Origin: Patescibacteria group bacterium
Lineage (GTDB): Bacteria > Patescibacteriota > Minisyncoccia > Phycocordibacterales > JACOZG01
Reading direction: 5' to 3'
DNA: 64,000 bases
Assembly: GCA_038065495.1 (NCBI GenBank)
Contig: JBBTQW010000001.1
Location: 44,137 to 108,136, forward strand
Below are positions 4,614 through 61,951 of the stretch, piece by piece (within the stretch, counting starts at the first letter, position 1; every line of letters starts with the position of its first letter). The notes beneath the pieces were generated by a model, which was not told where the DNA came from, did not search any database, and was given only the letters and a program-made list of their open reading frames with translations. The position numbers and the translations under genes are program-made.

Positions 4614-5359
4614 AAGAACAAGGGAAATTCATGTCTCGCGCTATTTTCTGCCTTTTGCCTTGGGCCAGATTCACTTTCGCGATGCGAGATCCACTCCTCT
4701 AATCTCGTGACCGCCAAGCCAGCACTAGCGATGAGCTTGAAATAATACTGCAACGGTCTATGAAAAGAAACTGTTTTCTCGCTGGCTGTCTGACTGCCCG
4801 GATGCATGAGGATTTCTGTCTTGCTCTCACTCATGTATTTATCCAGCCGACGAGCTTGCGTTTTCATTACATCATCCCAGAGCCAAGAACTAGCGCCAGC
4901 AATCCGGAACGCCGGATGGTTCAACACCAGAATTATTTTCCCTGACTTTTTCACTACTCTGTTTATTTCACTAAAAACTAATTTAATATTCTCAATATTT
5001 TGCACTGCCAGCACGCAGATTATTTTATCAAAACTGTTACTTTCTAAACTCGCTAAACTTTCTGCATTAGCAATAAGATATTTTATATTTTTGAAATTTT
5101 TACTATTTTCTTGCGCTAGTTTTACCAATTCAGAAGAAATATCAGCACCAACTATTTCTACTCCACCAACTCTCGCCATTTCGCGAGAGAAAAAACCCGA
5201 ACCACAAGCTAAGTCTAAAACTTTCTCGCCACTTTTTAAGTCCAGCAAGCGCAACAAATTTGGCAGAATTACTTGTTTCTGATAAGTGTCTGGATTCTGC
5301 TCGAGATGATCGTCGTACCAATCAGCGACATTGCCCCAAGAAGTGTTATTTTTTACCAT
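4589..5359 (-). CDS. class I SAM-dependent methyltransferase (Methyltransf_11-like)
   Basis: 256 aa with the VLDLACGSGFFSREMA glycine-rich SAM motif and a DKIICVLAVQNIEN motif II region. Confidence 0.85.
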   Translation of the reverse strand: MVKNNTSWGNVADWYDDHLEQNPDTYQKQVILPNLLRLLDLKSGEKVLDLACGSGFFSREMARVGGVEIVGADISSELVKLAQENSKNFKNIKYLIANAESLASLESNSFDKIICVLAVQNIENIKLVFSEINRVVKKSGKIILVLNHPAFRIAGASSWLWDDVMKTQARRLDKYMSESKTEILMHPGSQTASEKTVSFHRPLQYYFKLIASAGLAVTRLEEWISHRESESGPRQKAENSARHEFPLFLCLEVKKL

Positions 5360-8505: not shown

Positions 8506-9675
8506 TTAGTTATTCATCGGCAGAAATGTCTCCTTTCCGTCTATGACCTGCGTCAAAGCTAGAGCATATGTGGGTTTGTGATCTGAACCAAAAATGATTC
8601 GTCCAGCAACACCATCCCAAGTGGTTGCCCGCTTGAAATAATCTCGTAGACATTCAACCTCTTGATTGCCACAAGATTCGATAGCCGCCTTCAGACGGAA
8701 CGGCATATCGTAAACCAGTGCAATCAAATGGTTGTTAAATGCAATAGGACGACCATATTTCGCTTCGTAATTAGCCAGAAAATTTATTGCTACGGATTTT
8801 TCTCGGTCAAAGAGCCCGCCAAAAGCAAAGTGCTTTGGCGGCAAATAACCACCAGTAACTTCCATGATCTTCTTAGCACTAAAGGCGGCGTTAAAGGCTG
8901 TGGGCCTCTCCACACCCAACTCTTTAAGTTGCTTCACAATAAGGCCCATTGTTTCTGGTCCTTGAGTGCCGATCAAGATTCCATCAAAAGTATGTGTTTT
9001 TAACTTTTGAACGATTGTGCGGAAATCATTTACCCCCGGAGAAAAACTCTCATCAAAAACTACTACTCCCCCAGCAGCCTGAAAAGCGGTCTTAAAATTC
9101 TCAGAGAAATCTACCGCGAATTCTTTCTTCTCGGTGATAACAGCGATACTTTTGATATCTTGACCAAAAACATATTTAGCACCCTCTTGGGCATAATAGC
9201 TACTGGGCACAGAGTTACGAAAAACCCATTCCCCTTCATTGGGAATGTTCGATACTGACGTAAGATTGGCAAGGACCAAAACTTTGTCTACAGATGATTG
9301 TGGAGCGATTGTCATCGTCTCGGTCGAGCAATGACCACCCAAAATAACACTGACCTTATCGCTGTTAACCAGTTTTTGCCAGGCATTAATAGCCGACTTA
9401 CCGTCACATTTCCCATCTTCGACAATCATCTCAAATGACCGGCCCAGTACTCCACCACTGCTGTTAATTTCCTCGACCGCCAGAAGAATTGCATTCCTAG
9501 CATCCTCACCATAAATTGCCGCCGTCCCCGATAGTGGCGCAATCACCCCAATCTTAATCGGCTCGGCAGAAATAGCCGGAGCTGGGGCTGGCTCTGTTTT
9601 GCCGCTTTTGCTAACCCAAACCCCCAAGCCAATAACTACTAAAATAACCACAATCCAGCCGATGATTTTGTTCAT
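8506..9675 (-). CDS. ABC transporter substrate-binding protein, LivK/Peripla_BP_6 family (paralog 2)
   Basis: 389 aa with IKIGVIAPLSGTAAIYGEDARNAILLAVEEINSSGGVLGR. Confidence 0.85.
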   Translation of the reverse strand: MNKIIGWIVVILVVIGLGVWVSKSGKTEPAPAPAISAEPIKIGVIAPLSGTAAIYGEDARNAILLAVEEINSSGGVLGRSFEMIVEDGKCDGKSAINAWQKLVNSDKVSVILGGHCSTETMTIAPQSSVDKVLVLANLTSVSNIPNEGEWVFRNSVPSSYYAQEGAKYVFGQDIKSIAVITEKKEFAVDFSENFKTAFQAAGGVVVFDESFSPGVNDFRTIVQKLKTHTFDGILIGTQGPETMGLIVKQLKELGVERPTAFNAAFSAKKIMEVTGGYLPPKHFAFGGLFDREKSVAINFLANYEAKYGRPIAFNNHLIALVYDMPFRLKAAIESCGNQEVECLRDYFKRATTWDGVAGRIIFGSDHKPTYALALTQVIDGKETFLPMNN

Positions 9676-9722: not shown

Positions 9723-10472
9723 TTATTCTCCCAAATACGCCTCCACTACCTCTCGCTGCGCCAGCACCGCACTTGGCTCGCCCTCGGCGAGCAACTGACC
9801 GGAATCCAGCACAATCACGCGATCCGAAAGTTGCCGAATCAGCTCCATATTATGCTCGATCAAGATCACGACTTTATTTTGCTGTTTTAAATCTTGCAAC
9901 ACATTCGTCACAATTTTGATCATCTCGGGGAAAAGTCCGGCAAATGGTTCGTCGAAAAGAAAGATTTGAATCGGGAAAGTCTGCGCCATCGCGAGCACGC
10001 GCGCGATTTCCAACAATTTTCTCTGTCCGTACGAGAGATTAATCGCCAGTTCGCCATGTTTGCTCCACAAATTTACTTTTTCTAAAACCTCGCGCGCTCG
10101 AGCTAAGTGCAGATTGTTATGCTTTTCAAATAGTGCGCTAAAAACTGGTCTGTCTGTTAGGACTACCAAAATATTATCCAGCACACTCATTTGTTCAAAA
10201 AGTCGCACATCCTGAAAAGTCCGGGTAATCCCGTAACTCGGCACTTGCGCTATCTCTACTTTCTTTAACTTCGTCCGTTCCAGAACTACAATTTCCCCAC
10301 CATCTAGCGGCAAAACGCCGGTAAGCAAATTCACCAGCGTACTCTTGCCCGAGCCGTTGGGTCCAATGATGCTGGTAATCTGCCCGGCGGCAAACTGGAG
10401 CGACAAGTGATCCACCGCGTGCACGGCATCAAACTTCTTTACTAGATTGTGAGTGGAGAGGATGGGAGGCAT
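9723..10472 (-). CDS. livG: branched-chain amino acid ABC transporter ATP-binding protein (LivG-type)
   Basis: 249 aa with GPNGSGKST, LSYGQRKLLEIAR and FLFDEP. It shares a start/stop junction with the upstream SBP gene. Confidence 0.9.
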   Translation of the reverse strand: MPPILSTHNLVKKFDAVHAVDHLSLQFAAGQITSIIGPNGSGKSTLVNLLTGVLPLDGGEIVVLERTKLKKVEIAQVPSYGITRTFQDVRLFEQMSVLDNILVVLTDRPVFSALFEKHNNLHLARAREVLEKVNLWSKHGELAINLSYGQRKLLEIARVLAMAQTFPIQIFLFDEPFAGLFPEMIKIVTNVLQDLKQQNKVVILIEHNMELIRQLSDRVIVLDSGQLLAEGEPSAVLAQREVVEAYLGE

Positions 10473-11599
10473 TATGGTTGGGTATAAAGAACCGCTTTCC
10501 CATTAACGATTTGCTTGACGGTTGGCAGAAGACCAATTGCGTCGCCATTTTCATCGAAACCATAAGTCCCCATTACCCCTTTAAAATCCTTGAGGCTGTG
10601 CAAATAGTCTTTTAGTTTCGAGTTATCCAAACCAACATTATCAATAGCCTGCTTTATCATATAAACAGAATCGTATGTAACAGCGTCAGCAAACTTGATT
10701 GTTGGTGCACGACCATAAAGCGACTCAAATTTATGGAAAAGTTCACTTTTTATTTGATTGTTACCAACATTAGGATCAGCAAAGAAAATCATTCCTTCTG
10801 CTTCGGATATTTCAATGACTTCTTCTAATTCACCAAAATAATTACCGTAAATTGGACCTTTATATCCCAATTGCCGCAATTGTCTTAACGCAGAGATTCC
10901 CCCAAGTGGTGCATTTGGATTCATAACCACTGTTTCTGGTTTTTTGGAAATTACATCAAGGACATAACCCCTAAAATCGGTAGTACCTGGAGGGTAATTT
11001 TCTTCAATGACTTCTCCTTGAAAATATTTTTTAAATGCCTTAAGTAAACCGACTGTAAAATCACTCGTTTCTGTTATGACTGCTACTTTCCCATACTTTT
11101 TATTAATCGTCTCCGCCATAACTCTACCAGTATCATCATCAGAGTAAGAATTACGGAAAATAAATTCTCCAGCACCAGTTAAATCAGGATGCGTAGCCCA
11201 CATCGACATCATCAAAACTTGATTCCTCTCGGCCACCGGTGCTACCGCCAAGGCTTCTTGACCACAAATCACCAACAGAATCTTCACCTTGTTTACCGTA
11301 ATCAATTTTTGCGCCGCAGAGAGTGCATCCTTGGGACCACATTTACCATCCTCGTAAATGATTTCTAAAGCCTGACCATTAACACCTCCGGAAGTGTTTA
11401 TTTCCTCGCGAGCGATTTCCACAACATCCCTCATTTCTTCCCCCCAAGCTGCAGCAAAACCAGACAACGGGCCGATAAAACCAATCTTCACAGTCTCACC
11501 ATTTTTTTCTCCAGAATTCTCACTTTTGCTCGCATAAACAGCGATAAAAATTAGCGCGAGAAGTACGAATAACCAGATTATTTTGTTTTGGGCTTGCAT
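10472..11599 (-). CDS. ABC transporter substrate-binding protein, LivK/Peripla_BP_6 family (paralog 3)
   Basis: 375 aa with VKIGFIGPLSGFAAAWGEEMRDVVEIAREEINTSGGVNGQ. Confidence 0.85.
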   Translation of the reverse strand: MQAQNKIIWLFVLLALIFIAVYASKSENSGEKNGETVKIGFIGPLSGFAAAWGEEMRDVVEIAREEINTSGGVNGQALEIIYEDGKCGPKDALSAAQKLITVNKVKILLVICGQEALAVAPVAERNQVLMMSMWATHPDLTGAGEFIFRNSYSDDDTGRVMAETINKKYGKVAVITETSDFTVGLLKAFKKYFQGEVIEENYPPGTTDFRGYVLDVISKKPETVVMNPNAPLGGISALRQLRQLGYKGPIYGNYFGELEEVIEISEAEGMIFFADPNVGNNQIKSELFHKFESLYGRAPTIKFADAVTYDSVYMIKQAIDNVGLDNSKLKDYLHSLKDFKGVMGTYGFDENGDAIGLLPTVKQIVNGKAVLYTQP

Positions 11600-13371: not shown

Positions 13372-14544
13372 TTAGCTAGCCAGTTCGGCCTTGCCGTTCT
13401 TGATGACTTTCAACACGTGGCCGCCCACACGATCACCGTCCGCGCCGATCGTTACCAAACCAGAAGCTCCCGGCCAATCTTTGACTGTTCTTACCCAAGT
13501 GGCAATCTTTCCCGCATCAGTCCCGTTTTTGTTAATTCCTTCTGCCAGAATATAGACTAAGTCGTATTGTGCTTGAGCATAGTTACGATAAATCATTTCT
13601 TTGCCGTATTTTTTGAGATAGTCCGCGTCGAGTTTTTGCGATTTCGGCAAGCTCGCTGTCCCTTGTTCGGCAACCAATGCGCCCTCAAGTCTCGTTTTGT
13701 GATTAGTAATCAAGTCAGCATTGCCAGAGACAATGTCGTTTGCCAAGAGTGGCACCGACCACTTGAGATCAGCTAGCTGTTTGAGAATCCGTTCGGCCGT
13801 GCCAGGAGATTGAGGATCGATGAACAAAGCATCAGCATTCGCTGCCCGCAATTTCGTGAGAGTAGAACGAAAGTCAGTGGTAGTGCCTGGATACTCTTCT
13901 TTCGTGATTGTCCCCGCCGTTGCTGGGTAATTAGCTTCGAAAGCACGATAAATACCAAGAGCATAATCCGAGGATTCCTGCAGAACGGCTACCTTTTTCC
14001 AACCATGAGCAATCGCGGCCTCGGCTAGCACCCGACCCTGGCCATTGTCGCTAGCCACAGTCCGGGCGAAAAACAGACTTTTGTTTGTCAAATCAGGACT
14101 AGTGGCTGTGCCAGAAAACACAAAGACTTTCGCTTGCTCGGCAATTGGCAAACCGGCCAGAACGGCGCCAGAACAATCCGAGGCGATCACAATCTTGACG
14201 CCGTCAGCGTTGACTAACTTCTGCATTGCATTAGCACCGCCAGTGCCATTGCATTTCCCGTCTTCGTAAACTAGTTCAAATGTTCGGCCATTAATCACAT
14301 TATTTGTGTTGACTTCTTCCACCGCTAGATCAGTCACATTTTTCACAAACTCTCCCAAAGCTGCGGCGTCGCCAGTTAGTGGCGTAATCACACCAACCTT
14401 AATCGGCCCAGTTTCCACCACCGGAGTGGGAGTTTCTGTAGTAGTGGGTGCGCTAGATTGACTCGCTTTGCCGAGATAGGCCAGACCGATAACCAACAGA
14501 ACCAAGATAATCAAACCAACTATCGCTTTGCCAGTATTGCTCAT
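13372..14544 (-). CDS. ABC transporter substrate-binding protein, LivK/Peripla_BP_6 family (paralog 4), first gene of operon
   Basis: 390 aa with IKVGVITPLTGDAAALGEFVKNVTDLAVEEVNTNNVINGR. Confidence 0.85.
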   Translation of the reverse strand: MSNTGKAIVGLIILVLLVIGLAYLGKASQSSAPTTTETPTPVVETGPIKVGVITPLTGDAAALGEFVKNVTDLAVEEVNTNNVINGRTFELVYEDGKCNGTGGANAMQKLVNADGVKIVIASDCSGAVLAGLPIAEQAKVFVFSGTATSPDLTNKSLFFARTVASDNGQGRVLAEAAIAHGWKKVAVLQESSDYALGIYRAFEANYPATAGTITKEEYPGTTTDFRSTLTKLRAANADALFIDPQSPGTAERILKQLADLKWSVPLLANDIVSGNADLITNHKTRLEGALVAEQGTASLPKSQKLDADYLKKYGKEMIYRNYAQAQYDLVYILAEGINKNGTDAGKIATWVRTVKDWPGASGLVTIGADGDRVGGHVLKVIKNGKAELAS

Positions 14545-46653: not shown

Positions 46654-47208
46654 CTATTTCCTTTTGAGCTCACTCACCTCTTTCTCTAATTTCTTGATCT
46701 GGAGTTCCAGCTTCTGCGTATGTCCCACCAGCTTAGACTCCACTTGTTTAGCATGACTAGCCAGCGTCTCGGCCACCACCATCATGTCGGTAACATCTTC
46801 GATCGCCAATAGGATAATGGGCGGGAAAATCCCCGAAGTCGCATCTTCTTTGGGGTGGATCTGCCGGGCGTTTAAGATCATCACCTTGCGGCCAATCACC
46901 GGGAACTCATGCGCCACCTCAAAGCCTTTAAAGAAAGTGTTCTTGGGCAAAATATCTTCTAATAATTTCCTTAGAGACGGAATATTCCACTGGCCATTGC
47001 CCAGCTCATAGACTACCCGGTTCTCCGTTTCTCTGGCTTCCACCTGGAAGGCTAGATAAAATGATTCATTGGCCGCCATGACCCGTAACTCTTTATCCAG
47101 AATCAGAACCGGCTCACGCACCACGTCCACCACCGTCTTAATGTAAGTCCAACTCTCTTCCCACAATCGTCCGACGAGATCAGCATTTTTATTTGTTTCC
47201 ATAGCCAC
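46654..47208 (-). CDS. PAS-like sensor domain protein with C-terminal coiled coil (putative regulator), tentative
   Basis: 184 aa with a PAS-fold-like stretch of about 110 aa (REPVLILDKELRVMAANESFYLAFQVE...VMILNARQI) and a KLELQIKKLEKEVSELKRK coiled coil. Divergent from the ECF sigma gene. Confidence 0.45.
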   Translation of the reverse strand: MAMETNKNADLVGRLWEESWTYIKTVVDVVREPVLILDKELRVMAANESFYLAFQVEARETENRVVYELGNGQWNIPSLRKLLEDILPKNTFFKGFEVAHEFPVIGRKVMILNARQIHPKEDATSGIFPPIILLAIEDVTDMMVVAETLASHAKQVESKLVGHTQKLELQIKKLEKEVSELKRK

Positions 47209-47402
47209 CTAGACGTTGAAATTTCCAAAACATTACAGTCACCCATTCTATCCAATCCATCCAATCCATTGTCATTAGCTATTACCAGCCGACAAGCGTA
47301 AGATCAGAGTAAGACTGGCGCAAACGTTCTTAGAGCTATTGACTTTTGTGCTGTAATATTCCGGTAATCAAAGCTCCTCCAACGCGTCTTAAACTAGATA
47401 AC

Positions 47403-47930
47403 ATGCTAACCACCAAACAAGCGATTATCCAACGGGCATTGCTCGCTCTCGCCCACAGCGATTACAGCAAGGGGCTTAATTCCCATGCTTTCTTCAAAGT
47501 CAGCGACCGGGCAGTGGGCGAAGACTTAGTCCAAGACACTTTTACCAAAACTTGGCGCTATCTGGTGCGCGGCGGCAAGATCGAGATCATGAAGGCGTTT
47601 CTCTATCACATTCTTAATAATCTAATTATCGACGAGTACCGCAAGCGCAAACATAAGAACGCTTCGCTAGACTTGTTACTAGAAAAAGGCTTTGAGCCCA
47701 GCGCGCGAGAAACTGATAAATTATTCGACATCTTGGATGGCAGAGCGGCGCTGTTGCTAATCCAAAATCTGCCGGCAAATTATCAGAGGGTGATGCGCTT
47801 GCGTTATGTGCAAGATTTATCGCTCAAAGAAATTTCGCTCATCACCGGGCAGTCTACCAATACCGTGGCGGTCCAGACTCATCGCGGACTGGAAAAGCTC
47901 AAAGTCTTGTACCATTCGTCTCGGCCGTAA
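47403..47930 (+). CDS. RNA polymerase sigma factor, sigma-70 family (ECF-type)
   Basis: Start at MLTTKQAIIQ. Region 2 is DLVQDTFTKTWRYL and region 4 is YQRVMRLRYVQDLSLKEISLITGQSTNTVAVQTHRGLEKLK. Confidence 0.85.
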   Translation: MLTTKQAIIQRALLALAHSDYSKGLNSHAFFKVSDRAVGEDLVQDTFTKTWRYLVRGGKIEIMKAFLYHILNNLIIDEYRKRKHKNASLDLLLEKGFEPSARETDKLFDILDGRAALLLIQNLPANYQRVMRLRYVQDLSLKEISLITGQSTNTVAVQTHRGLEKLKVLYHSSRP

Positions 47931-47953: not shown

Positions 47954-48040
47954 AGCCGAGGTGGCGAAATGGCAGACGCATCAGCTTTAGGAGCTGACGG
48001 GGGCAACCCCATGGAGGTTCAAGTCCTCTCCTCGGCACCA
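47954..48040 (+). tRNA. tRNA-Leu (anticodon TAG), CCA encoded
   Basis: Acceptor GCCGAGG/CCTCGGC, anticodon stem TCAGC/GCTGA with loop TTTAGGA, long variable arm, T-loop TTCAAGT and ACCA. Confidence 0.85.
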
Positions 48041-48047
48041 GTATAAC

Positions 48048-48611
48048 GTGAAGAAAAAACTTAATTTTATCAAAACCGCCGCACTGGATCCCAATATCGG
48101 CGCCGTGGCGCGCAGTTCGCGATATGTCGTTAAGACTGTTTTAAGCAAATTAAAAGGCGAGGTCTTGAATCAAGTTTGGGAATATGGCCCAGGCGATGGC
48201 GTGGTGACCCGAGAAATTCTCAAGTTGTTACCAAAAAACGGCAAACTGACAGTAATCGAAACTAATGCGCATTTTGTCCGATCGCTAAAGCAAATCCCTG
48301 ATGCGCGATTAGAGATTATCCACGGCACGATCCAAGAAACACTACCAAGATTGCTCAAGCAAATTAGTCTAGAGAAAATTAAAGTAGATGCAACTATCTC
48401 CAGCGTGCCTTTTTCTTTCTTCACTCCACGCGAGCGTGATCAGATTATAAGACAAACCAGCTCGGCACTACGAGACGATGGCAAGTTTGTGGTCTTCAAC
48501 CAATACACGCCACTGATGTTCTTCCCAATCAAAAAACACCTCAAAAAGCTCAGGCTAAGTTATGAATTCCGCAATCTGCCACCGTGTTTCATCTTTTCTG
48601 CCAAAAAATAG
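48048..48611 (+). CDS. small class I SAM-dependent methyltransferase (rRNA-adenine-dimethylase-like fold), GTG start
   Basis: 187 aa with the SAM motif VWEYGPGDGVVTREIL. The start is uncertain, since the GTG lies 8 nt after the tRNA. Confidence 0.65.
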   Translation: MKKKLNFIKTAALDPNIGAVARSSRYVVKTVLSKLKGEVLNQVWEYGPGDGVVTREILKLLPKNGKLTVIETNAHFVRSLKQIPDARLEIIHGTIQETLPRLLKQISLEKIKVDATISSVPFSFFTPRERDQIIRQTSSALRDDGKFVVFNQYTPLMFFPIKKHLKKLRLSYEFRNLPPCFIFSAKK

Positions 48612-48650: not shown

Positions 48651-48680
48651 TTGACAAGAATGGGCCTATGGGTGTATAAT
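48651..48680 (+). promoter_or_regulatory. sigma70 consensus promoter module P5 (TTGACA-18-TATAAT, then GGGGGTTGG)
   Basis: ttgacaagaatgggcctatgggtgTATAATgggggttgg lies about 95 nt upstream of the SPFH gene. Confidence 0.65.
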
Positions 48681-48773
48681 GGGGGTTGGTTGAGTAAGGG
48701 GCTCGTGTGAGCTTCTGAAAATAGGAAACGGACAGTTGTTTGTAAACTGAATATAGAAGAAGGAGAATGTGTT

Positions 48774-49955
48774 ATGGCAGAGGTAAACTATCGCTCAACA
48801 GAAAACTTGGGGTGGTATCGCTCCGTTGTGGTACTTTTGTACATCACCTTTGTGGCAGTCGGTATTGCACTTTGGTGCTTCCCGATCGAAATCGTAAAGG
48901 GAAAGCCATTTGGACTTGATGTAACGTTCGGGTTCTTAGTCGTTTGTTACACCCTGGCTAGCTTACGGCAAGTTGGTGAAGATGAGCACGCGGCCAAAAC
49001 ATTTTTTGGTCGACCAATGCAGAACGTAGACTCTGGTCTAACGTTCGTACCGCTCTTTATCTGCAGACTGGTACGCTTCTCTACCAATCTCCAGACACTC
49101 GTTATCGGTTCTCCACGAGAACATCCAACGGAAAGGGACTCAGATGGTAAGATAAAAACATTTGACTTTGTCCCATCTCGAGGAACTCTGGTCAGTGAGG
49201 AGCCACTACGCATTACCACAGCAAGCTATACTGCTGCTGAGTGGAAAGTAGACGGGAATCCACTGTCAGAGGACGATGTTAAGAAAAGATTCCCAAGAGA
49301 AGACGCTTTAGCTGGCCGAAGTACCATTGACCCACAGATCATTGTCACATTTATCGTGCTTGACGCATGTAAATTTGTGAAGGCAGTTGGCTCAAAAATC
49401 GAATTGGCCGTTGCGCCAATTGCCCAAGCGGCACGTGGGACACTCCAGGCCTTTTGTGGTAAAAGAGATTTGTCGTTTATCATCCACCAACTTGAGGACG
49501 AAGCACAGAAACAACTGCTCCGCGACCTTGAGATACTGGTTGGTGACCCGGATTCTCTTGACCCAAATTCCAAGAAAGAACCTTTACACTGGGGTGTAGA
49601 CATCCGTGGTGTACGCATTAGTGACATCGGATTATCCTACAAGGTGAACAATGCCTTGTCGGAAGCCAGAGCGGCTGGAGCCAGAAAAGAGACGACGATC
49701 ACCGATGCCGAAGCTAACAAGAAAAAGTTCGAGCTTGAGGGCGAAGGTGCTGCGAAAGCTGCTTTCTTACTCCTACAAGCTCAGGCGCGAGGTTCTGCCA
49801 AGATGGCCAAGATAATGAAAACGGACGAAGGCAAACTTGCCGCCCAGCTACAAGCGATGAAAGAAGCGCTGAGCAAGGGCGACAACAAGCTCTTCATGGT
49901 CGGAGGAAAATTCCACGATCTGATGGAAATCCTGGCCAGCGCGCTTGGAAAGTGA
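48774..49955 (+). CDS. SPFH/Band-7 (stomatin/flotillin/HflKC-like) domain membrane protein
   Basis: 393 aa. An N-terminal TM hairpin is followed by a Band-7-like core, then an Ala/Lys/Glu-rich coiled coil (EANKKKFELEGEGAAKAAFLLLQAQARG) typical of flotillin-like proteins. SD GAAGGAGAA. Confidence 0.7.
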   Translation: MAEVNYRSTENLGWYRSVVVLLYITFVAVGIALWCFPIEIVKGKPFGLDVTFGFLVVCYTLASLRQVGEDEHAAKTFFGRPMQNVDSGLTFVPLFICRLVRFSTNLQTLVIGSPREHPTERDSDGKIKTFDFVPSRGTLVSEEPLRITTASYTAAEWKVDGNPLSEDDVKKRFPREDALAGRSTIDPQIIVTFIVLDACKFVKAVGSKIELAVAPIAQAARGTLQAFCGKRDLSFIIHQLEDEAQKQLLRDLEILVGDPDSLDPNSKKEPLHWGVDIRGVRISDIGLSYKVNNALSEARAAGARKETTITDAEANKKKFELEGEGAAKAAFLLLQAQARGSAKMAKIMKTDEGKLAAQLQAMKEALSKGDNKLFMVGGKFHDLMEILASALGK

Positions 49956-50017
49956 GAATGATGATTTAGGCTAAGACAAGGCCGTTTGCAGTATTCTGCA
50001 GGCGGCCTTTTTTATAC

Positions 50018-50045
50018 TTGACAAATCCTATGTACTTGCTATAAT
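50018..50045 (+). promoter_or_regulatory. sigma70 consensus promoter module P6 (TTGACA-16-TATAAT, then GGGGGTAGTGG)
   Basis: ttgacaaatcctatgtacttgcTATAATgggggtagtgg is near-identical to P2 over about 40 nt. Confidence 0.65.
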
Positions 50046-50108
50046 GGGGGTAGTGGTGCTGTATTGCGGCACTTTGACAACAAAATAACCAGAAAACAGG
50101 AGAATAAA

Positions 50109-50303
50109 ATGGACATTTTCCAGTGTCTATGCGTGGCCGCTATGATCGTCGGCGTGATTGGCTTTATTGCCAGTTTATGGGGAATCGGTCTCGGTTTCTT
50201 GGCTAGGTTATCACTGCGGACCGCTTGCTTTGCCTGCCAACAAATCCGGAGAGCCCGCCGTGAACACAAAAATAAAACAAAGAAAGAACAGGTGAAATCA
50301 TGA
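50109..50303 (+). CDS. small TM protein (64 aa) with Cys-containing basic tail
   Basis: Start at MDIFQCLCVAAMIVGV with SD AACAGGAGAATAAA-ATG. Its TGA stop overlaps the next ATG (ATGA), indicating translational coupling. Confidence 0.5.
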   Translation: MDIFQCLCVAAMIVGVIGFIASLWGIGLGFLARLSLRTACFACQQIRRARREHKNKTKKEQVKS

Positions 50304-51061
50304 AGTGGAAAAGTGCGCTCATTTCCATTGCTCTCGTAACTCTGACAATTTGGGCATTATCCTGGTGGAACAAAAACTCCACCAAATTACCACCGCCACC
50401 AACAGCACAGACGACAACAGGTACGACAAAGGAAGACAAAGAAACGGAAAGCAAGACAGACCGCACAACACCAACGCTGATCATGGTGGCAATAGTCGCC
50501 ACGATTGTCGTCGGAATTGCAATCAAACGACAGAGAGAAAAAGCTGAACTCGAGCGTCAAAAAAAGATTGCGAAAGAAACCCCCAAAGAGAAAGAGGCCA
50601 GACTGGATCAGGAGAAAAAAGACAAAGAAGCTTGGCAGAAAAGAAAGAAGAGTTTGAGTAAGTGGTTACTTGCCACTTTTCTAATCCTCCTCATCCTCTT
50701 CGCTGGCTGGAAAATCGGAGTAGTGGGTTATGTGCGGCAAGCTATGGCCAGCAACTCACGACCGGTGGGTACTGTTACAACAGTAACCAGAGCTCCGGCA
50801 CCGCAAATGCCGAGGTCTGGACATGCTGAGCTGTGGGTAGATGATCAGCACTGGGAAGAATTCGAGATCCATCACGAGGATGTCGAAATTCACCACTTCA
50901 ATGACGGACCAGTGGTTATCATCCCACCCCACGGCGCACCGGTGAGAAGTTATCCTAAGGAAGTCACCGTGTGGCCAAAGGATACTCAACGCAAGGGTGT
51001 CTGGCGCGTCCAGGCACTAAACCCTGGGCCGAAGTTTCGAGACACGTGGACTTGGGACTAA
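50300..51061 (+). CDS. hypothetical membrane protein (253 aa, 3 TM) with Thr-rich and Lys/Glu-rich linkers and His-rich C-terminal domain
   Basis: Start coupled to the upstream small gene. C-terminal HWEEFEIHHEDVEIHHFNDG. Confidence 0.6.
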   Translation: MKWKSALISIALVTLTIWALSWWNKNSTKLPPPPTAQTTTGTTKEDKETESKTDRTTPTLIMVAIVATIVVGIAIKRQREKAELERQKKIAKETPKEKEARLDQEKKDKEAWQKRKKSLSKWLLATFLILLILFAGWKIGVVGYVRQAMASNSRPVGTVTTVTRAPAPQMPRSGHAELWVDDQHWEEFEIHHEDVEIHHFNDGPVVIIPPHGAPVRSYPKEVTVWPKDTQRKGVWRVQALNPGPKFRDTWTWD

Positions 51062-51134
51062 ACTCCCGAGTACCAAAAAGCCCCGCGCGCAACTACTTGT
51101 TGCGTGGCGGGGCTTTATTTTTTGATTTAGCAGA

Positions 51135-51416
51135 TTAGCGACAGTTAATCGTCGCGCAAACCAAGTTGAGAATACCGATCGCCGAGATCATAATGAAGAG
51201 GCCAATCACACCCCAGAGCACATGCTGGGCGCCCTTCTTGCGCGCCTCCTCATTGGTCTGCTCCGAGAGCATCTCGTACACACCGTAGAGAAAGGTGACA
51301 AAGGCGACGGCCCCCAAGAGTGTAATAATCGGCTTCGCAATTTTATCTACCACCTTATCAAGCACCGGCAAGCCTTTAACAGCTTGGGCATAAGCGACTG
51401 GCCAGAAGTTGGACAT
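51135..51416 (-). CDS. VirB2/TrbC-like (T4SS-pilin-like) small two-TM protein, paralog 1
   Basis: 93 aa. Architecture is leader, TM1, charged loop (EQTNEEARKKGAQH), TM2 (LWGVIGLFIMISAIGIL) and a short tail. Confidence 0.55.
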   Translation of the reverse strand: MSNFWPVAYAQAVKGLPVLDKVVDKIAKPIITLLGAVAFVTFLYGVYEMLSEQTNEEARKKGAQHVLWGVIGLFIMISAIGILNLVCATINCR

Positions 51417-51429
51417 GCTTAATAGCTAA

Positions 51430-51792
51430 CTACTGACGCGGAATCTGAGGCAACGGCTGGCCAGGACCCTGACTATTGCCAAGACGGAAGGTGCCGCCGA
51501 GCAAATTGACTAGACCCCAAACCGAGACCATCACAAAGATCGCGATAATACCATTGATCATCATACTGCGACCGGCGGACTGTGCATCTTCGTCACCAGC
51601 CGACATCACATACTTGAGCACGCCGTAGAGGAAGTAGACCACGGCTAAACCGATGATGAGCGGAATAACGTAAACGTTGATAATCCGGATAATGATCTCA
51701 AAGATTCCCTCCACACTATTCTGCGCTAGCGCGAGCACTGGCAGGGCCAGAGCGGCCAGAGGCACAGCATACTTTTTTACAATCTGTAACAT
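51430..51792 (-). CDS. VirB2/TrbC-like (T4SS-pilin-like) small protein, paralog 2, with signal peptide
   Basis: 120 aa. Signal peptide (AVPLAALALPVLALAQNS), TM1, loop (SAGDEDAQSAGRSMM), TM2 (INGIIAIFVMVSVWGLVNLLGGTF). Confidence 0.6.
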   Translation of the reverse strand: MLQIVKKYAVPLAALALPVLALAQNSVEGIFEIIIRIINVYVIPLIIGLAVVYFLYGVLKYVMSAGDEDAQSAGRSMMINGIIAIFVMVSVWGLVNLLGGTFRLGNSQGPGQPLPQIPRQ

Positions 51793-51868
51793 ATTTTTTA
51801 CTTATTTTACTTCTTATAAACTAATAATAACTAAACTAAGTTGACCCCTAAATTATACTAAACTTGGG

Positions 51869-52153
51869 CTAAGAACCAAAGTAGGGCAATGGCGGCGTGC
51901 TGTTATCTAGCACAAAGGTGCCACCCAGCACATTTACCAAGCCCCACACCGAGATCATCACAAAGAGGCCAATAATCCCGTACAACATCATCTTCCTCCC
52001 CTCTTCTTGCTCTTTGGCATCGCCTGCTTTGCTCATATATTTTAGCACCCCAAGGAGAAAGTAGACAACCGCCGCGCCAATAAATAGCGCAATGAGCGGC
52101 TGCAGAATCGCGTCGGTAAAGAGTTTGACTAAGCCAGCAAAATCTCTAGTCAT
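51869..52153 (-). CDS. VirB2/TrbC-like (T4SS-pilin-like) small protein, paralog 3
   Basis: 94 aa. Clearly paralogous to 51430..51792, sharing ...VVYFLLGVLKYMSKAGDAKEQEEGRKMMLYGIIGLFVMISVWGLVNVLGGTF. Confidence 0.6.
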   Translation of the reverse strand: MTRDFAGLVKLFTDAILQPLIALFIGAAVVYFLLGVLKYMSKAGDAKEQEEGRKMMLYGIIGLFVMISVWGLVNVLGGTFVLDNSTPPLPYFGS

Positions 52154-52180
52154 AATATTTTATATAATTATTTAACAAAA

Positions 52181-52516
52181 TTATTTCAAGCTATTAATCG
52201 TCTGGCCGATGGCAGAAGAAATGATGTACGCACCCAATATAATCGCCGCGCCAATGACCACGCCCAGCAGAGCACGTTTCGCGTCACTCAACTTATCCGG
52301 TGCGCCACGAGCTTGGACGAAGAGGAAACCCACATACACTATCGCCACCACCAGCACCGGCAGGCCCACCTGCACTACAATCTCGAGCAATTTATTTACA
52401 AAATCTTGAATGCTACAAATATTGATCGGATTGCTGATTGGCCCGGAACCGCCGCAGTTGCCTGAGCTTGGACGCGGGATTACATCAGCCGCGTAAACGA
52501 TAAATTGATCTAACAT
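52181..52516 (-). CDS. VirB2/TrbC-like (T4SS-pilin-like) small protein, paralog 4 (Cys pair N-terminal to TM1)
   Basis: 111 aa with NCGGSGPISNPINICSIQDFVNKLLEIVV, TM1, loop (QARGAPDKLSDAKRA) and TM2. Confidence 0.55.
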   Translation of the reverse strand: MLDQFIVYAADVIPRPSSGNCGGSGPISNPINICSIQDFVNKLLEIVVQVGLPVLVVAIVYVGFLFVQARGAPDKLSDAKRALLGVVIGAAIILGAYIISSAIGQTINSLK

Positions 52517-52546
52517 GACGAGTTCATTCTAGCACTTTATTGCTCA

Positions 52547-53011
52547 CTACTGGGGCAAGAAGCTGTGGACAGAGCTCTTGAGCGTATCTTTGGCGAGATA
52601 ATTAAAGATCGTATTGACGATTAGCCACGCGGCCAGCACCAGCGCCAGGCCAATGATCGCCGCCTGCAGGATCTCAATTGCTTGCTTGCGCTTCTCCGGT
52701 TTGGCTGGCTGGCTGGCCATGCCAATGCCGGCATAAGCAATCGCCACGGTGGCCACCGGCACAGCGAGGACAAAAGTAAAATAGTTCACAATATTCTGCA
52801 CAAGCTTAAAGAAGTCATTGGTCTGGCACTCGGCCTGGCCGGGATTGCCGCAAGGCACAATATTACTAGCCACTTGCGCGTGAGTCACCGAAGCCGAAAA
52901 AATTAGCGTGAGGCTAAAAAGTAAAACTAAAGCGAGAACAATAATTCTGCTAAATAAATTATTCATTATTATTTGCCGGCAAGAGATCTTGTAATTGCGC
53001 GCTGGCATCAC
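52547..53011 (-). CDS. VirB2/TrbC-like (T4SS-pilin-like) small protein, paralog 5 (Cys pair; start possibly internal at 52966)
   Basis: 154-aa ORF. A signal/TM is followed by PCGNPGQAECQTNDFFKLVQNIVNYF, TM1, loop (ASQPAKPEKRKQA) and TM2. The upstream 45 nt overlap the SBP-like gene, so the start may be MNNLFSR. Confidence 0.55.
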   Translation of the reverse strand: MMPARNYKISCRQIIMNNLFSRIIVLALVLLFSLTLIFSASVTHAQVASNIVPCGNPGQAECQTNDFFKLVQNIVNYFTFVLAVPVATVAIAYAGIGMASQPAKPEKRKQAIEILQAAIIGLALVLAAWLIVNTIFNYLAKDTLKSSVHSFLPQ

Positions 53012-54284
53012 TCACCGCGCGGCTGGGATCAACGCGGCCAAGCGCAAGCGACTCGGCCATCTGGCGCCAGAGCAGGAGCGTTTTATCCGGTGCCGGATCT
53101 AGCCAGTCGCGGGCAATTACGGCGGCTTGGTAGAGCACACTCTGGTCTGGATCAGCCGGGAGCGTGGCCAGCAAGTCATTACGCGCCGGTGGCAGAGTGG
53201 CCGCCGTGGCAACGAGCGCGGCAAAGTCCGGACCGGAGAGCAAGTTAGCCACGGCTATAGCCGTATTGGGATTGGCCGCGCCGCGAGCGAGGGCGAGGAA
53301 GTGGAAGCGGCCGAGAGTGAGCTGGCGCGATCCGCCCTCACGCTGGGGTGGCGTGGCAATGTAGAAGTTAAGTTGGGGATTCTGCGCAGCTAGGCGGTCG
53401 ATCTCACTGCCCCAGCCCAAGTACATCGCAAGCTTGCCGCGGAGGAAGGCCTCACGCGCCTCGGGTTGAGAACTATTCCACGCATAGAGCGTATTGGCCG
53501 GATCGGTGAAGCGGAGGAAGAAGGCGAGAGCCTCGCTGGCTGGCTGCTGACTAAAACCCAGCGCCTCTTTAAGCGTCACTTTTGGCAACCCGGCCGAGCG
53601 CGCGACAATGGGATTGCCGGCTTGCATAATCAAGAGTGAGAGCAGCTCTTTGGCATTAGAAATATTAGAGAAAGTGCCAAGGGCAATGCCACTCTGGCTG
53701 ATATTGCCGCGGCCATCGGTCTGCGTTAATAATTTGTTCACGGTCGCTAAGTCTTTCCAAGTTCTGGGTACAGACGGCACTTTGGCATTGGCGAGCAAAT
53801 CTTGATTGTAGAAGAGCACAAGTGGATCAACATATACTGGCCAACCATAGACACCGTCCGGACCAAATAATAATTCCCAATCTCGAATATGCGTGCCAAG
53901 CACAAAAGTATCTTTGAAAGTTTGTTTAGAAAATGTTTCGTACGGAATCTGCTGAAGTTTCGCCGCTTGTCTAGTGAGAATATCAGAAGATAAAGTAACT
54001 AAATCCGGTCCGCGGCCCAGCGCTAGCGCTTCGACTAGATCATTCTCTAGCGTCTCGGGATTTTTCTCCACATATACCAGCGAGAACTGGTCTTGGTGTT
54101 CTTGTCGCGCTTTTTCTAGCACGCTATTCAGCCTTTCCGCCGGGATCGTCCCCCACCAGACCACTGTGCCGCCGAGGCCACCCGTGGGCGCGCGGAAGCC
54201 GGGCAAGACACCGGCAAAAACGAGCACGCCCACGAGCAGCGCGACGATAAAAATAGCAATGATAGTGATCTGGAAGCCGTTCAT
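52959..54284 (-). CDS. TM-anchored extracellular solute-binding-protein-like protein (possible ABC SBP family 1), GC-rich
   Basis: 441 aa. A TM anchor is followed by an alpha/beta periplasmic-binding-like sequence (GTVVWWGT..., ...AMYLGWGSE...). Family call is tentative. Confidence 0.5.
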   Translation of the reverse strand: MNGFQITIIAIFIVALLVGVLVFAGVLPGFRAPTGGLGGTVVWWGTIPAERLNSVLEKARQEHQDQFSLVYVEKNPETLENDLVEALALGRGPDLVTLSSDILTRQAAKLQQIPYETFSKQTFKDTFVLGTHIRDWELLFGPDGVYGWPVYVDPLVLFYNQDLLANAKVPSVPRTWKDLATVNKLLTQTDGRGNISQSGIALGTFSNISNAKELLSLLIMQAGNPIVARSAGLPKVTLKEALGFSQQPASEALAFFLRFTDPANTLYAWNSSQPEAREAFLRGKLAMYLGWGSEIDRLAAQNPQLNFYIATPPQREGGSRQLTLGRFHFLALARGAANPNTAIAVANLLSGPDFAALVATAATLPPARNDLLATLPADPDQSVLYQAAVIARDWLDPAPDKTLLLWRQMAESLALGRVDPSRAVSDASAQLQDLLPANNNE

Positions 54285-59761: not shown

Positions 59762-60820
59762 TTAGAAGCTCAGAACCTTGAGATACTGGCTGGAATTTAC
59801 CTCACCCGCAGAGTCGAATTGATAAGACGAAACCTGTCCGGTAATACCAGCTAAGATTTTGGCTTTTAGTTGTTCAATCGATAAGTCTTGAGCGTAGAAA
59901 GTATCGAGAATTCCAAACAAATCAAAAGTAATCGAATCATAGAACGGATATTGCGAGTCTTTGCCATATTTTGCTTTGTAGTCACTCACATATTTCTCGT
60001 AACCGGCTGTATCCAGAGACGCCTTCCAACACACGCCATGCAAACCGTAATCAGCTGGCTTGAAGGGGTAATCGCAAGTGTTCACTTCGCTAATAATTTC
60101 TGGCTTAAAGCTCTGAACTTGCATTTCCTTCAGCACCAGTTGCGCCGCTTTATCACTCGTAGGCACAAAGAGTAATGTATCAATGCCGGAGAATTTTAGT
60201 TTAGTAACTTGCGTGCGATAAGTGTTGTCATTGGCATTATATTTTTCTGTCGTCAAGATTTTGCTACCAAGATTTTCTTGCAAAAGATTGGCCAGCGACT
60301 GGGCATAATCTTGTTCTTCGTGCAAGAGACCGATCTTTTTGTTTTCTGGGATAGTCTTGATATGCTCCACCATTGCCTCGCCCACCGAGAGCGCGTCGGG
60401 AATAAATCTGATCACTTCTGTGCCAGTTTTTCTAATTTCGGCCGAGCCAGCGTAAGCGGTTAGGATTAGATCGCCATTTTGTTGAGCGAGCGGTGCGAGG
60501 GCCATCACACTGCCGCTACATGCAACGTAGAAAATCCTGACGTTTTCTAATTTTAATTTCTGGTAAGCTGAGATCGCTTTTTTAGCATCACATGGATCGT
60601 CTTCAAACATTGGGAGAATATTCTGATAAGTTTGGAGATTAATTGCATTCTTAATCGGCTCACCCATCGAGGCCACTGCTCCGCTCAGCGGGATAATCAC
60701 ACCAATCTTCACCGGTCGTTCTAGTTTTACGGCATTATCTGCCTCTGGATTTTTAGAAGCCAAAACAGCAATACCAATAACAACCACAATAACCACCAAC
60801 CAAATTATTACTTTTTTCAT
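59762..60820 (-). CDS. ABC transporter substrate-binding protein, LivK/Peripla_BP_6 family (paralog 5)
   Basis: 352 aa. A TM anchor is followed by VKIGVIIPLSGAVASMGEPIKNAINL. Confidence 0.8.
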   Translation of the reverse strand: MKKVIIWLVVIVVVIGIAVLASKNPEADNAVKLERPVKIGVIIPLSGAVASMGEPIKNAINLQTYQNILPMFEDDPCDAKKAISAYQKLKLENVRIFYVACSGSVMALAPLAQQNGDLILTAYAGSAEIRKTGTEVIRFIPDALSVGEAMVEHIKTIPENKKIGLLHEEQDYAQSLANLLQENLGSKILTTEKYNANDNTYRTQVTKLKFSGIDTLLFVPTSDKAAQLVLKEMQVQSFKPEIISEVNTCDYPFKPADYGLHGVCWKASLDTAGYEKYVSDYKAKYGKDSQYPFYDSITFDLFGILDTFYAQDLSIEQLKAKILAGITGQVSSYQFDSAGEVNSSQYLKVLSF

Positions 60821-60826
60821 GTTTAA

Positions 60827-61951
60827 TTAATTTTCTAGTTTCACAAATTGACCGTCCTTAACAATCTTGAACAAAGTTGGCTTAGAAGCAACGCCATTTT
60901 CGTCAATACTAATGTTGCCACTCACGCCGTGATAATATTTGATCTTGTGCAATTCTGTTTTGATACACTCAACGTCTTCGCCACATACTAGATAAGCCGC
61001 AACTTCCAGATGTAGAGCGTCATAAGCATTGGAAGCAAAGACATCAGGAAAAACTCCGTATAGCTGCTTAAAGTGATCACGGAAGCCGTTGCTGTCGTCG
61101 CCCAAGATAGCTGGGTCAGCAGATGAGATAATAAAACCTTCAGCAGTTTTGCCAGCCACACTAAGAACAACCGGATCCTCGTTCTGATAATTACCAACCA
61201 GTGGTGTTTGAATGTCTAATTCTTTGGTTTGCTTGATGATCGTTCCTAATGCGCCAGTTAGTTGGGTCACAAAAATCACATCCGGTTTTGCCGCTTTAAT
61301 TTTTGTCAGATTGGTTCTGAAGTCGTTAGTGTCGAGAGAAGTCATCTCGTCAGCCACCACTTGACCACCGAGTTCCGTAAATCTAGCCCCAATATATTTC
61401 CGGTAATCTTTGCCAAACTGCGTATTGTAATAAATAAAAGCCGCTTTTTTGGCTTTCAAATTATTAACCGTAAAATCAGCAATCGTTTTAGCATTATCTC
61501 TGACTAAGAAATTAGTGGAGAAGTAATAATTTTTCCCTAACAAATCATCAACGTTCGCCGCAACACCCATGCTGATAATTTTGTTTGGCTCGGTAATTGC
61601 AATAGACGGAACCAAACCAATCGCGCAAAATTGATTAATAGTTTTTACTTTATCAATATTAATCAGTTTCTGGACCGCCGAAGTAATATCTTTTGGTAGG
61701 CAAGCATCTTCGTAAACAAGATTTATCGCTAAATCTTTCTTTCCACTCTCGAGATCTTTTTTAGCGAGATCAAAACCACGTTTGATATTCTCACCAATTG
61801 AGGCGTAGTTGCCTGTCAGTGGAATAGCAATGCCAATCTTGATCACCTCACCACTTTTCACATCACTATTTTCTGTTTTATTTTTACTCGCAAAAACGAC
61901 GATGAAAATTATTGCGAGAATTATTACTAGCCAAATTATTACTTTTTTCAT
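60827..61951 (-). CDS. ABC transporter substrate-binding protein, LivK/Peripla_BP_6 family (paralog 6)
   Basis: 374 aa. A TM anchor is followed by IKIGIAIPLTGNYASIGENIKRGFDLAKKDL. Confidence 0.8.
   Translation of the reverse strand: MKKVIIWLVIILAIIFIVVFASKNKTENSDVKSGEVIKIGIAIPLTGNYASIGENIKRGFDLAKKDLESGKKDLAINLVYEDACLPKDITSAVQKLINIDKVKTINQFCAIGLVPSIAITEPNKIISMGVAANVDDLLGKNYYFSTNFLVRDNAKTIADFTVNNLKAKKAAFIYYNTQFGKDYRKYIGARFTELGGQVVADEMTSLDTNDFRTNLTKIKAAKPDVIFVTQLTGALGTIIKQTKELDIQTPLVGNYQNEDPVVLSVAGKTAEGFIISSADPAILGDDSNGFRDHFKQLYGVFPDVFASNAYDALHLEVAAYLVCGEDVECIKTELHKIKYYHGVSGNISIDENGVASKPTLFKIVKDGQFVKLEN

Follow-up and report, generated by a model that had tools for sequence, protein, structure and literature searches.

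The locus described here probably encodes a Patescibacteria-specific form of the SPFH-plus-operon-partner membrane module, of which QmcA-YbbJ of E. coli is the best-known example. It lies on the forward strand of the window (the whole stretch of DNA that was analysed, 64 kb long) and contains three intact ORFs encoding proteins of 393, 64, and 253 aa. These and the other features described in the original prediction, made from the sequence alone, are present, but three of its interpretations (a flotillin-type SPFH protein, a structured leader, and a metal-related His-rich stretch) do not hold. Membrane scaffolds of the SPFH type occur almost universally, but their clients are known in few cases, e.g., FtsH and NfeD. 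The source genome is a Patescibacteria MAG. On its upstream side the locus is limited by a conserved boundary, a tRNA-Leu(tag) gene (47955-48040, + strand, detected with ARAGORN) that also stands directly 5' of the SPFH promoter in four related loci (L001, L009, L010, and L012).

The first gene (48774-49955, + strand) encodes the 393-aa SPFH protein. Its Band_7 domain (PF01145) spans residues 66-315 (E = 9e-10, 39.3 bits against a Pfam gathering cut-off of 23.6), i.e., 250 residues against 176 positions of the Pfam profile, so that insertions would add up to about 70 aa. The protein had been called flotillin-like, and only the SPFH part of this assignment stands: as judged from profiles and from its structural model, it is of the stomatin/QmcA type and not of the flotillin type. 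The profile of its clade matched stomatin best among the solved structures of the PDB (PH1511 of P. horikoshii, PDB 3bk6, 1.7e-15), followed by QmcA (3.7e-10), HflK (2e-8), and prohibitin (1e-6), and this search returned no flotillin at E ≤ 0.01. When the alignment of the clade was compared with E. coli QmcA using hhalign, it gave a probability of 96.6% (E = 5e-10) over 165 columns. The AF2 model, in which the SPFH core has a pLDDT of 72-85, includes a long C-terminal helix (residues 289-348), and its best Foldseek matches are the HflK/C, stomatin, and prohibitin cages, the first flotillin appearing at rank 35. By analogy with these solved SPFH assemblies, the long C-terminal helix would let the protein assemble into a membrane-bound ring or cage. 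Two hydrophobic segments are present in its N-terminal part (residues 15-41 and 48-62), and charge counts are ambiguous as to which side of the membrane the SPFH domain faces. Relatives are rare: about 15 among 5.8 billion proteins, two loci in a scan of metagenomes with the SPFH alignment, and none in the corresponding scan of genomes.

The association with a partner is best seen in the loci of eight more distant relatives (L007-L014), where the SPFH protein is 23-28% identical to that of the window. In all of them the stop codon of the SPFH gene overlaps the start codon of the next gene, by ATGA in seven loci and by TAATG in L011, and an SD-like motif precedes the partner start. This is the arrangement of qmcA-ybbJ in E. 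coli, which also has the SPFH gene first and a 4-nt stop/start overlap (PMC10434171). Hence, the order of the genes, which had been proposed to be unusual by comparison with the NfeD-flotillin pair, is not so, whereas the proposal of an unusual composition holds in that the partner matches no NfeD. The encoded partners have 162-269 aa, with 2-4 TM helices and C-terminal domains of 89-128 aa. Their sequence groups follow the SPFH subclades, and they evolve faster than the SPFH proteins, with 22-32% identity among partners against 64-74% among SPFH proteins. Like YbbJ, the NfeD partner of QmcA (stomatin-type SPFH1, PDB 8z5g), they are small multi-TM proteins with a C-terminal non-membrane domain; unlike YbbJ, they lack detectable NfeD similarity, are longer, carry a Lys/Glu-rich linker, and have a C-terminal domain with a predicted location outside the cell. 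This prediction comes from the positive-inside count, a crude rule, the SPFH orientation being itself ambiguous: lysines and arginines are more numerous before than after the last TM helix in 10 out of 10 partners. Each C-terminal domain of L007-L011, as read from the sequences, also contains two or more cysteines. The partner would thus present a basic linker to the cytoplasm and a C-terminal domain, probably beta-rich, to the outside of the cell.

In the window, the place of the partner is taken by the 253-aa protein (50300-51061, + strand). It has three hydrophobic or TM segments (residues 5-22, 56-77, and 118-145), two linkers, one rich in Thr and the other in Lys/Glu, and a C-terminal domain that covers residues 146-253 (about 108 aa). 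Seven histidines lie in residues 175-211, and the initial description of a three-TM protein with these linkers and a His-rich C-terminal domain is thereby confirmed. Only two relatives were found among 5.8 billion proteins, a scarcity that, together with that of the SPFH protein, bears out the idea of a lineage-specific, SPFH-centred module. An exhaustive HMMER search with the C-terminal domain among 1.84 billion representatives found the protein of the sister genome (L001) as its only relative, and scans for this domain in GTDB genomes and JGI metagenomes gave no match. The HMMER search also gave weak hits to unrelated repeat proteins, through a generic beta-hairpin repeat (H..DG.vtVvD..G.Pv.SPP), and these were discarded as uninformative. 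When the three proteins of the locus were scanned with PADLOC, PHROGs, and NCBIfam, no meaningful match was obtained, and a known defence or phage gene is thereby ruled out. The dN/dS of the partner C-terminal domain relative to L001 (0.10) and the maintenance of the small ORF in three lineages indicate that the genes are real and functional. Compared with the profile of the partners of L012, L007, and L014, the 253-aa protein gave an hhalign probability of 75.8% (E = 2.3e-5, 107 columns) in an alignment that is collinear across the last TM helix and the C-terminal domain; this is one result obtained with very shallow alignments, and comparisons with fewer sequences gave 2-5%. Searches against single distant partners, by BLASTP or hhalign, were negative, and a usable signal arose only with the three-sequence profile. 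The protein is thus probably the positional and diverged homologous equivalent of the partner family. The structure prediction that had been suggested for it produced a model of low confidence (mean pLDDT 49.5, below 50 in the C-terminal domain, from an alignment of only two sequences), which shows only beta strands in the C-terminal domain.

Unlike qmcA-ybbJ, the pair of the window is uncoupled, since a terminator and a promoter stand between its members, along with an additional gene for a 64-aa TM protein. The presence of a consensus promoter in front of each unit was confirmed: P5 (48651-48680, + strand) reads TTGACA-N18-TATAAT then GGGGGT, and P6 (50018-50045, + strand) reads TTGACA-N16-(TG)TATAAT then GGGGGT, with an extended -10 TG. 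Both match the sigma-70 consensus at 12 out of 12 positions, and the 64-kb window contains three such perfect matches for 0.04 expected. The counterpart of P5 in L001 is likewise perfect, as is that of P6 (TTGACA-N16-TATAAT, read from the sequence), and the P6 counterpart in L003 is TTGACA-N17-TACAAT. The SPFH unit ends at an intrinsic terminator (49978-50009, + strand) with a 14-bp stem, eight GC pairs, and a T run. It lies inside a block (49973-50047) that is 88% identical to positions 3311-3385 of L001, where the stem of the counterpart, read from the sequence, still pairs. The SPFH gene itself is preceded by a leader of about 87 nt (87-94 nt; 48687-48773, + strand). Its length is close to the 95 nt of the structured 5' UTR that had been proposed, but the structure was not borne out: the fold energy of the leader is not significantly lower than that of shuffles (z = -0.52), no consensus structure was found across five leaders, and the Rfam search matched no RNA family. 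Leaders of 82-115 nt also precede the SPFH gene in L001, L010, L012, and L014. Within the leader of the window, an imperfect palindrome (CAGTT/AACTG), GGACAGTTGTTTGTAAACTGAATATA (48730-48755, + strand), occurs only once in the window and is found nearly identical, at an equal leader position, in L014, where the SPFH protein is only 23% identical. The candidate TTTGACAA was unconvincing as a general leader motif (eight occurrences in the window for 3.5 expected).

The small membrane protein (50109-50303, + strand) has an AGGAG 8 nt upstream of its ATG; a TTG at 50064, devoid of an RBS, would extend it from 64 to 79 aa. It consists of a single extended hydrophobic segment with a basic tail, and its stop codon overlaps the start of the 253-aa protein in the expected ATGA (50300-50303). 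Its positional counterparts have 65 aa in L001 (31-35% identical) and 104 aa in L003. The gene is absent from L007-L014, where the stop of the SPFH gene overlaps the start of the partner. It is known only from the sublineage of the window, with its ORF kept in three lineages. Two possible origins, a first TM helix split off an ancestral partner and a leftover from the 3' end of an older SPFH gene, lacked sequence support and were dropped. In this sublineage, an original SPFH-ATGA-partner coupling has been broken, with the terminator, the second consensus promoter, and the small TM gene now between the members of the pair, and the small gene bearing the ATGA coupling to the partner.

Comparison with the sister genome L001 shows that the locus is a recombination mosaic, in which the SPFH coding sequence has been exchanged between a conserved promoter and a conserved terminator. 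L001 has, between these same elements, a different gene of 348 aa whose product is weakly SPFH-like (Band_7 E = 6e-4, prohibitin E = 0.006); the possibility that it belongs to the same SPFH clade was rejected (hhalign probability 0.7%). The following block (50048-50626, + strand), which includes the P6 leader, the small gene, and codons 1-109 of the partner gene, has no blastn match to L001, and its coding part shows about 35% aa identity with saturated synonymous differences (pS 0.76-0.81). The dS relative to L001 passes from 0.8-1.5 in the left flank, through a saturated middle, to 0.28-0.44 in the partner C-terminal domain and the pilin genes that follow, which form one recombination block as defined by blastn blocks and dS. 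The breakpoint within the partner gene is near the last TM helix. That the SPFH gene was swapped in L001 with the partner C-terminal domain left unchanged argues against a tight co-adaptation of the two.

The module ends at a hairpin terminator (51077-51116) with an A run and a T run on its flanks, which is common to the convergent pilin gene and is very stable (dG = -31 kcal/mol, z = -4.35, 0 out of 200 shuffles folding as well). Beyond it stand, on the opposite strand as expected, five VirB2-like T4SS_pilin genes (51135-53011, - strand) matching PF18895: 51135-51416 (34.2 bits), 51430-51792 (30.0 bits), 51869-52153 (precomputed match), 52181-52516 (33.1 bits), and 52547-53011 (43.1 bits), the scores being compared with a cut-off of 26.6 bits. 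These five variable pilin-like genes resemble the VirB2-like arrays of Patescibacteria (PF18895/PF04956), of which 441 have been described in 383 assemblies (PMC12102498). The original prediction had treated the array as a mere neighbour, but it is the most conserved neighbour of the SPFH-partner pair. The synteny with relatives is recurrent: the array follows the partner in convergent orientation in eight loci (the window, L001, and L009-L014) and is found on the opposite strand wherever the contig reaches far enough, with the genes upstream of the pair varying. L008 is probably a ninth such locus, because a partial minus-strand ORF after its partner resembles the pilins by eye. A gene for a solute-binding protein lies beyond the array in six loci, where the contig reaches that far. 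In the window, the array is flanked by such a gene and by a methyltransferase gene, not by virB4, and neither VirB4 nor VirB6 was found among the tested ORFs.

The pairing of an SPFH protein with a membrane partner could be a canonical SPFH-NfeD pair in disguise, the partners being NfeD homologues that diverged past sequence recognition and act as YbbJ, YuaF, or PH0471 do. The architecture would fit, since short NfeD proteins are described as carrying a soluble all-beta domain after about three hydrophobic stretches (PMC2636767), and the partners have N-terminal hydrophobic segments and then a C-terminal domain for which, in the low-confidence model of the window protein, only beta strands are predicted. 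The partner gene also occupies the position of ybbJ, overlapping by the same 4 nt the QmcA-like SPFH gene that precedes it. Identity between known NfeD proteins falls as low as 21%, and YuaF-type partners are so diverged that their recognition needed structure (PMC2636767). The YuaF-FloT system of B. subtilis (NfeD2 and flotillin) likewise joins a membrane scaffold to a partner with three TM helices and a beta domain, although, unlike FloT, the SPFH protein described here is not of the flotillin type. The principle of an operon partner is also shared with PH1511 and its NfeD partners PH1510/PH0471 (PDB 2exd; PMC2636767, PMC4208085), but the partner described here has neither the ClpP-type protease domain nor a recognisable OB-fold NfeD domain, and the NfeD gene of P. 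horikoshii is taken to precede the SPFH gene, the opposite order, a reading of the name "NfeD1a-SPFH1a" that is not explicit in the review (PMC2636767). Several observations make such a disguise unlikely. Pfam NfeD (PF01957), a match to which would have favoured it, was found neither in nine partners at E ≤ 1 nor in the 253-aa protein at E ≤ 0.1; the C-terminal domain of about 100 aa matched nothing in Pfam; and three partner profiles showed no similarity to E. coli YbbJ (hhalign probability 0.1-2%). The partners are also longer than typical short NfeD proteins (140-150 aa). Furthermore, the NfeD OB domain works on the SPFH domain's side of the membrane, and the C-terminal domains of the partners are predicted outside the cell by the positive-inside rule and, in some, by cysteines.

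The constancy of the pilin array suggests another explanation, to which we give little credence: the SPFH protein and its partner might be an accessory module of the VirB2-like array, in which the scaffold organises a patch for pilin insertion or assembly and the exposed domain of the partner contacts the pilins. Across eight loci whose upstream genes differ, only the array is invariant as a neighbour, and it shares a recombination block of low dS with the partner C-terminal domain. In a cultured Saccharibacterium such arrays have proved essential (PMC10633639; PMC12102498), and T4SS components of Agrobacterium are reported to be located in detergent-resistant membranes (PMC8656257). Yet the convergent orientation precludes co-transcription, all the loci come from one clade, so that the linkage may be inherited gene order, the window lacks VirB4 and VirB6 among its tested ORFs, and the survey of T4SS genes in Patescibacteria mentions neither SPFH genes nor an SPFH neighbour (PMC12102498). 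Less likely still, the two units would be functionally unrelated neighbours, and the 253-aa protein, being rich in His, would bind metal at the cell surface. Separate consensus promoters with a strong terminator between the units, the conservation in L001 of six out of the seven histidines, and the SPFH swap with an unchanged C-terminal domain would be expected under this scenario, but the relatives couple SPFH and partner through overlapping stop and start codons. The histidine-rich EIHHEDVEIHH falls in an insertion that the alignable homologues lack, only one histidine of the set being retained in them, and the metal-associated system that had been suggested is thus not supported; in addition, no metal-related family was matched, and the locus has no transporter or metal regulator. 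We therefore favour an SPFH-plus-operon-partner module specific to Patescibacteria, even if some observations run counter to it: co-regulation is not enforced in the window, given the separate promoters and the intervening terminator; the homology of the window partner depends on a single hhalign result of 76% from very shallow alignments, and its structural model is of low confidence (pLDDT 49.5); the SPFH gene of L001 was swapped with no change in the partner C-terminal domain; and the synteny with pilins, which are convergent and not co-transcribed, could be gene order inherited in one lineage.

In the module that we favour, the SPFH protein would form a membrane ring or cage that corrals or stabilises the TM region of the partner, and the latter would present its C-terminal domain at the cell surface. 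This stomatin-like clade of Patescibacteria thus pairs with a different, fast-evolving partner family that is predicted to be surface-exposed. The exchange of coding sequences between a conserved promoter and a conserved terminator illustrates how diversity may arise at surface-related loci of reduced genomes. There is an outside chance that the stomatin-like scaffold and its hypervariable, surface-exposed partner are a dedicated accessory module of the pilin array, organising its site of assembly or display and exchanged between strains as cassettes bounded by promoter and terminator. Should the linkage with pilins reflect nothing more than inherited gene order, this would be an ordinary lineage-specific SPFH operon. 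If the linkage is functional, the partner family would be a natural example of an SPFH partner other than NfeD, SPFH microdomains would for the first time be connected in function with the surface apparatus of episymbiotic Patescibacteria, and there would be a testable handle on the assembly of pilin arrays, to which a central role in the lifestyle of these ultrasmall bacteria is ascribed.

A translationally coupled membrane partner of the SPFH gene is conserved among the relatives of this locus. In all eight of the distant loci that we fetched (L007, L008 and L009-L014, with SPFH proteins 23-28% identical to that of the window), the SPFH stop overlaps the start of an ORF of 162-269 aa, as ATGA in seven and as TAATG in one, with a Shine-Dalgarno-like motif upstream. 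These partners match no Pfam family and combine two to four hydrophobic segments with a basic linker and a C-terminal domain (C-domain) of 89-128 aa. Their sequence groups track the SPFH subclades, and they evolve much faster than SPFH itself (22-32% versus 64-74% identity among L008-L011). Since E. coli qmcA-ybbJ has the same gene order and the same 4-nt overlap (PMC10434171), the ancestral layout is an ordinary SPFH-then-partner operon, and not the unusual arrangement put forward in the original prediction.

The adjacency of the pair to a pilin array is also conserved. In the window, five genes for VirB2-like pilins (T4SS_pilin, Pfam PF18895; 51135-53011, minus strand) follow the partner gene, and a convergent array lies downstream of the pair wherever the contig reaches, i.e., in eight loci (the window, the sister-genome locus L001, and L009-L014); an incomplete ORF on the minus strand of L008, past the partner gene, looks pilin-like by eye only. 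Beyond the array, the window and L009-L014 encode a solute-binding protein, then usually a methyltransferase and GyrA. The genes upstream of the pair vary (racemase, RbfA, integrase, cytochrome P460 or glycosyltransferase), and the locus is often immediately preceded by a tRNA-Leu(tag). No VirB4-type ATPase was seen among the large window ORFs tested, so the array does not belong to any recognisable T4SS cluster. It sits between solute-binding protein and methyltransferase genes (51135-54284), a flank that recurs in most distant loci.

The SPFH protein of the window (393 aa; 48774-49955, plus strand) matches Band_7 above the Pfam threshold (39.3 bits, E 9e-10) and is 100% identical to the NCBI entry 'MAG: SPFH domain-containing protein [Patescibacteria group bacterium]'. 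The window was placed in a metagenome-assembled genome of Patescibacteria (CPR; GCA_964356885.1, contig CAYHIU010000001.1). It had been called flotillin-like, but its fold is of the stomatin/QmcA type, as profile, hhalign, and Foldseek matches all indicate. Against solved structures, the profile of its clade retrieved stomatin of P. horikoshii (E 1.7e-15) and human (E 5e-15), E. coli QmcA (E 3.7e-10), HflK (E 2e-8), and prohibitin (E 1e-6), and no flotillin at E <= 0.01; hhalign gave QmcA a probability of 96.6% with the clade. The AF2 model (mean pLDDT 60.6, with 72-85 in the SPFH core) has the expected long C-terminal helix (289-348), and Foldseek matches it best to cages of HflK/C, stomatin, and prohibitin. 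The family is rare: among 5.8 billion proteins, a single-sequence search found three relatives and a profile search about 15, which carry either no name or that of Patescibacteria only. This supports the part of the original interpretation that proposed a lineage-specific, SPFH-based module.

In the window, L001, and L003 (SPFH 44% identical to the window by BLASTP), three elements have been inserted that break the coupling: a terminator, a consensus promoter (TTGACA-N17-TACAAT in L003), and a gene for a small TM protein (64, 65 or 104 aa) with a stop codon that overlaps the partner start. The original observation was mostly right, all three ORFs (393, 64 and 253 aa) being present with their ATGA overlap. 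On the plus strand, the SPFH unit is headed by promoter P5 (48651-48680) and ends in a terminator with a 14-bp stem (49978-50009). The second unit is headed by promoter P6 (50018-50045) and comprises the small gene (50109-50303), read from an ATG preceded by AGGAG, and the partner gene (50300-51061); a TTG at 50064, another possible start of the small ORF, lacks an RBS and is about 11 nt away from the predicted start of transcription. Both promoters are perfect TTGACA/TATAAT matches, of which the 64 kb hold three against 0.04 expected by chance. A hairpin (51077-51116; dG -31 kcal/mol, z -4.35), flanked by A and T runs, ends the second unit and is common to it and the convergent pilin gene. 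The SPFH leader is long, as predicted (about 87-94 nt), but not structured: its fold does not stand out from shuffled sequence (z -0.52), it has no Rfam match, and five related leaders share no consensus structure. It contains an imperfect palindrome, GGACAGTTGTTTG(TA/AC)AACTGAATATA (48730-48755), which is near-identical at L014 1818-1843 although the SPFH proteins of the two loci are just 23% identical, and could act as an operator or in the RNA. The P6 leaders of the window, L001, and L003 hold similar TTTGACAA boxes.

By position, the 253-aa protein is the partner. Among the 5.8 billion proteins, its only two relatives are the L001 protein and a copy at 99%. Exhaustive HMMER searching with the C-domain brought no further credible match, and sequence searches of Pfam, NCBIfam, PADLOC, PHROGs, and PDB gave no meaningful match; its AF2 model is unusable (pLDDT 49.5). 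Over its last 110 residues, the 253-aa protein shares 90% identity with the L001 protein at a dN/dS of 0.10, which shows purifying selection and points clearly to a functional, constrained domain, whereas the first 109 residues are 34% identical with saturated synonymous sites. A three-member profile of the L012, L007, and L014 partners aligned with the window/L001 pair by hhalign (75.8%, E 2.3e-5, 107 columns), collinearly from the basic linker through the last TM helix to the end of the C-domain. Because shallower comparisons with distant partners had given no match, homology is likely but not proven. In this alignment, the His-rich EIHHEDVEIHH is an insertion without counterpart in the other partners, which removes the main support for the suggested metal-associated function of the family.

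The partners might nevertheless be NfeD homologues beyond sequence recognition, as their TM segments followed by a C-domain resemble short NfeDs, in which the final domain is all-beta, and known NfeDs may share just 21% identity (PMC2636767). This divergence and the similar architecture keep the alternative live, even though Pfam NfeD matched none of nine of the ten partners at E <= 1, nor the 253-aa protein, scanned to E <= 0.1 only, and three partner profiles had no similarity to E. coli YbbJ (probability 0.1-2%). Positive-inside counts, a crude rule, would place the C-domain outside the cell in ten of ten partners, and the cysteines seen by eye in the C-domains of L007-L011 (at least two each) fit that location.

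Compared with L001, whose flanking genes are 77-97% identical to those of the window, the locus is a mosaic in blastn blocks and dS. The promoter and terminator-plus-P6 regions retain 79-88% nucleotide identity. Exactly between conserved leader and terminator, the SPFH coding sequence is exchanged in L001 (2243-3289) for an unalignable gene, whose 348-aa product bears only a weak resemblance to SPFH proteins (Band_7 E 6e-4, prohibitin E 0.006; 0.7% by hhalign against the SPFH clade). Divergence is saturated in the small gene and over partner codons 1-109, and the C-domain and pilin genes form a younger block (dS 0.28-0.44, versus 0.8-1.5 in the left flank). Our reading is that recombination has swapped coding cassettes that lie between conserved regulatory sequences, one breakpoint falling within the partner gene.

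A 187-aa SAM-methyltransferase gene (48048-48611, plus strand; RrnaAD/Methyltransf_25 matches) lies between tRNA-Leu (47955-48040) and P5, beginning 8 nt past the tRNA. The syntenic L001 lacks it, keeping just its last ~30 nt and the downstream sequence; the difference is an insertion or deletion at the tRNA 3' end. In L012, a tyrosine-recombinase (phage integrase) gene (3827-4851) adjoins a tRNA-Leu(tag) in inverted orientation, a short way upstream of SPFH, a hint that integration or rearrangement takes place on the side of the locus near the tRNA. In the window, the tRNA and SPFH locus is closely preceded by two divergent genes (46654-47930), one for a PAS-domain protein on the minus strand and one for an ECF-type sigma factor on the plus strand, which L001 keeps at 77% and 91% identity. 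Elsewhere in the window, at least five Peripla_BP_6 solute-binding paralogues are confirmed by Pfam (7289-8416, 8506-9675, 10472-11599, 13372-14544 and 60827-61951), and a sixth (59762-60820) matches the Peripla_BP_6 gene that is truncated where locus L005 ends, an expansion striking for a reduced genome.

SPFH proteins paired with a partner in one operon are known; this partner family is unrecognised. A survey of Patescibacteria T4SS and a Saccharibacteria genetics paper do not mention SPFH, a literature search on Patescibacteria together with SPFH returned nothing relevant, and in the literature searched we found no earlier report linking an SPFH pair to VirB2-like pilin arrays. We infer that the SPFH protein would form a membrane cage enclosing or stabilising the partner's TM region and perhaps the 64-aa protein as well, with the partner C-domain on display at the cell surface. 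The independent promoters of the window genome are strong. An appealing but less probable hypothesis is that the SPFH-partner module serves the pilin array.
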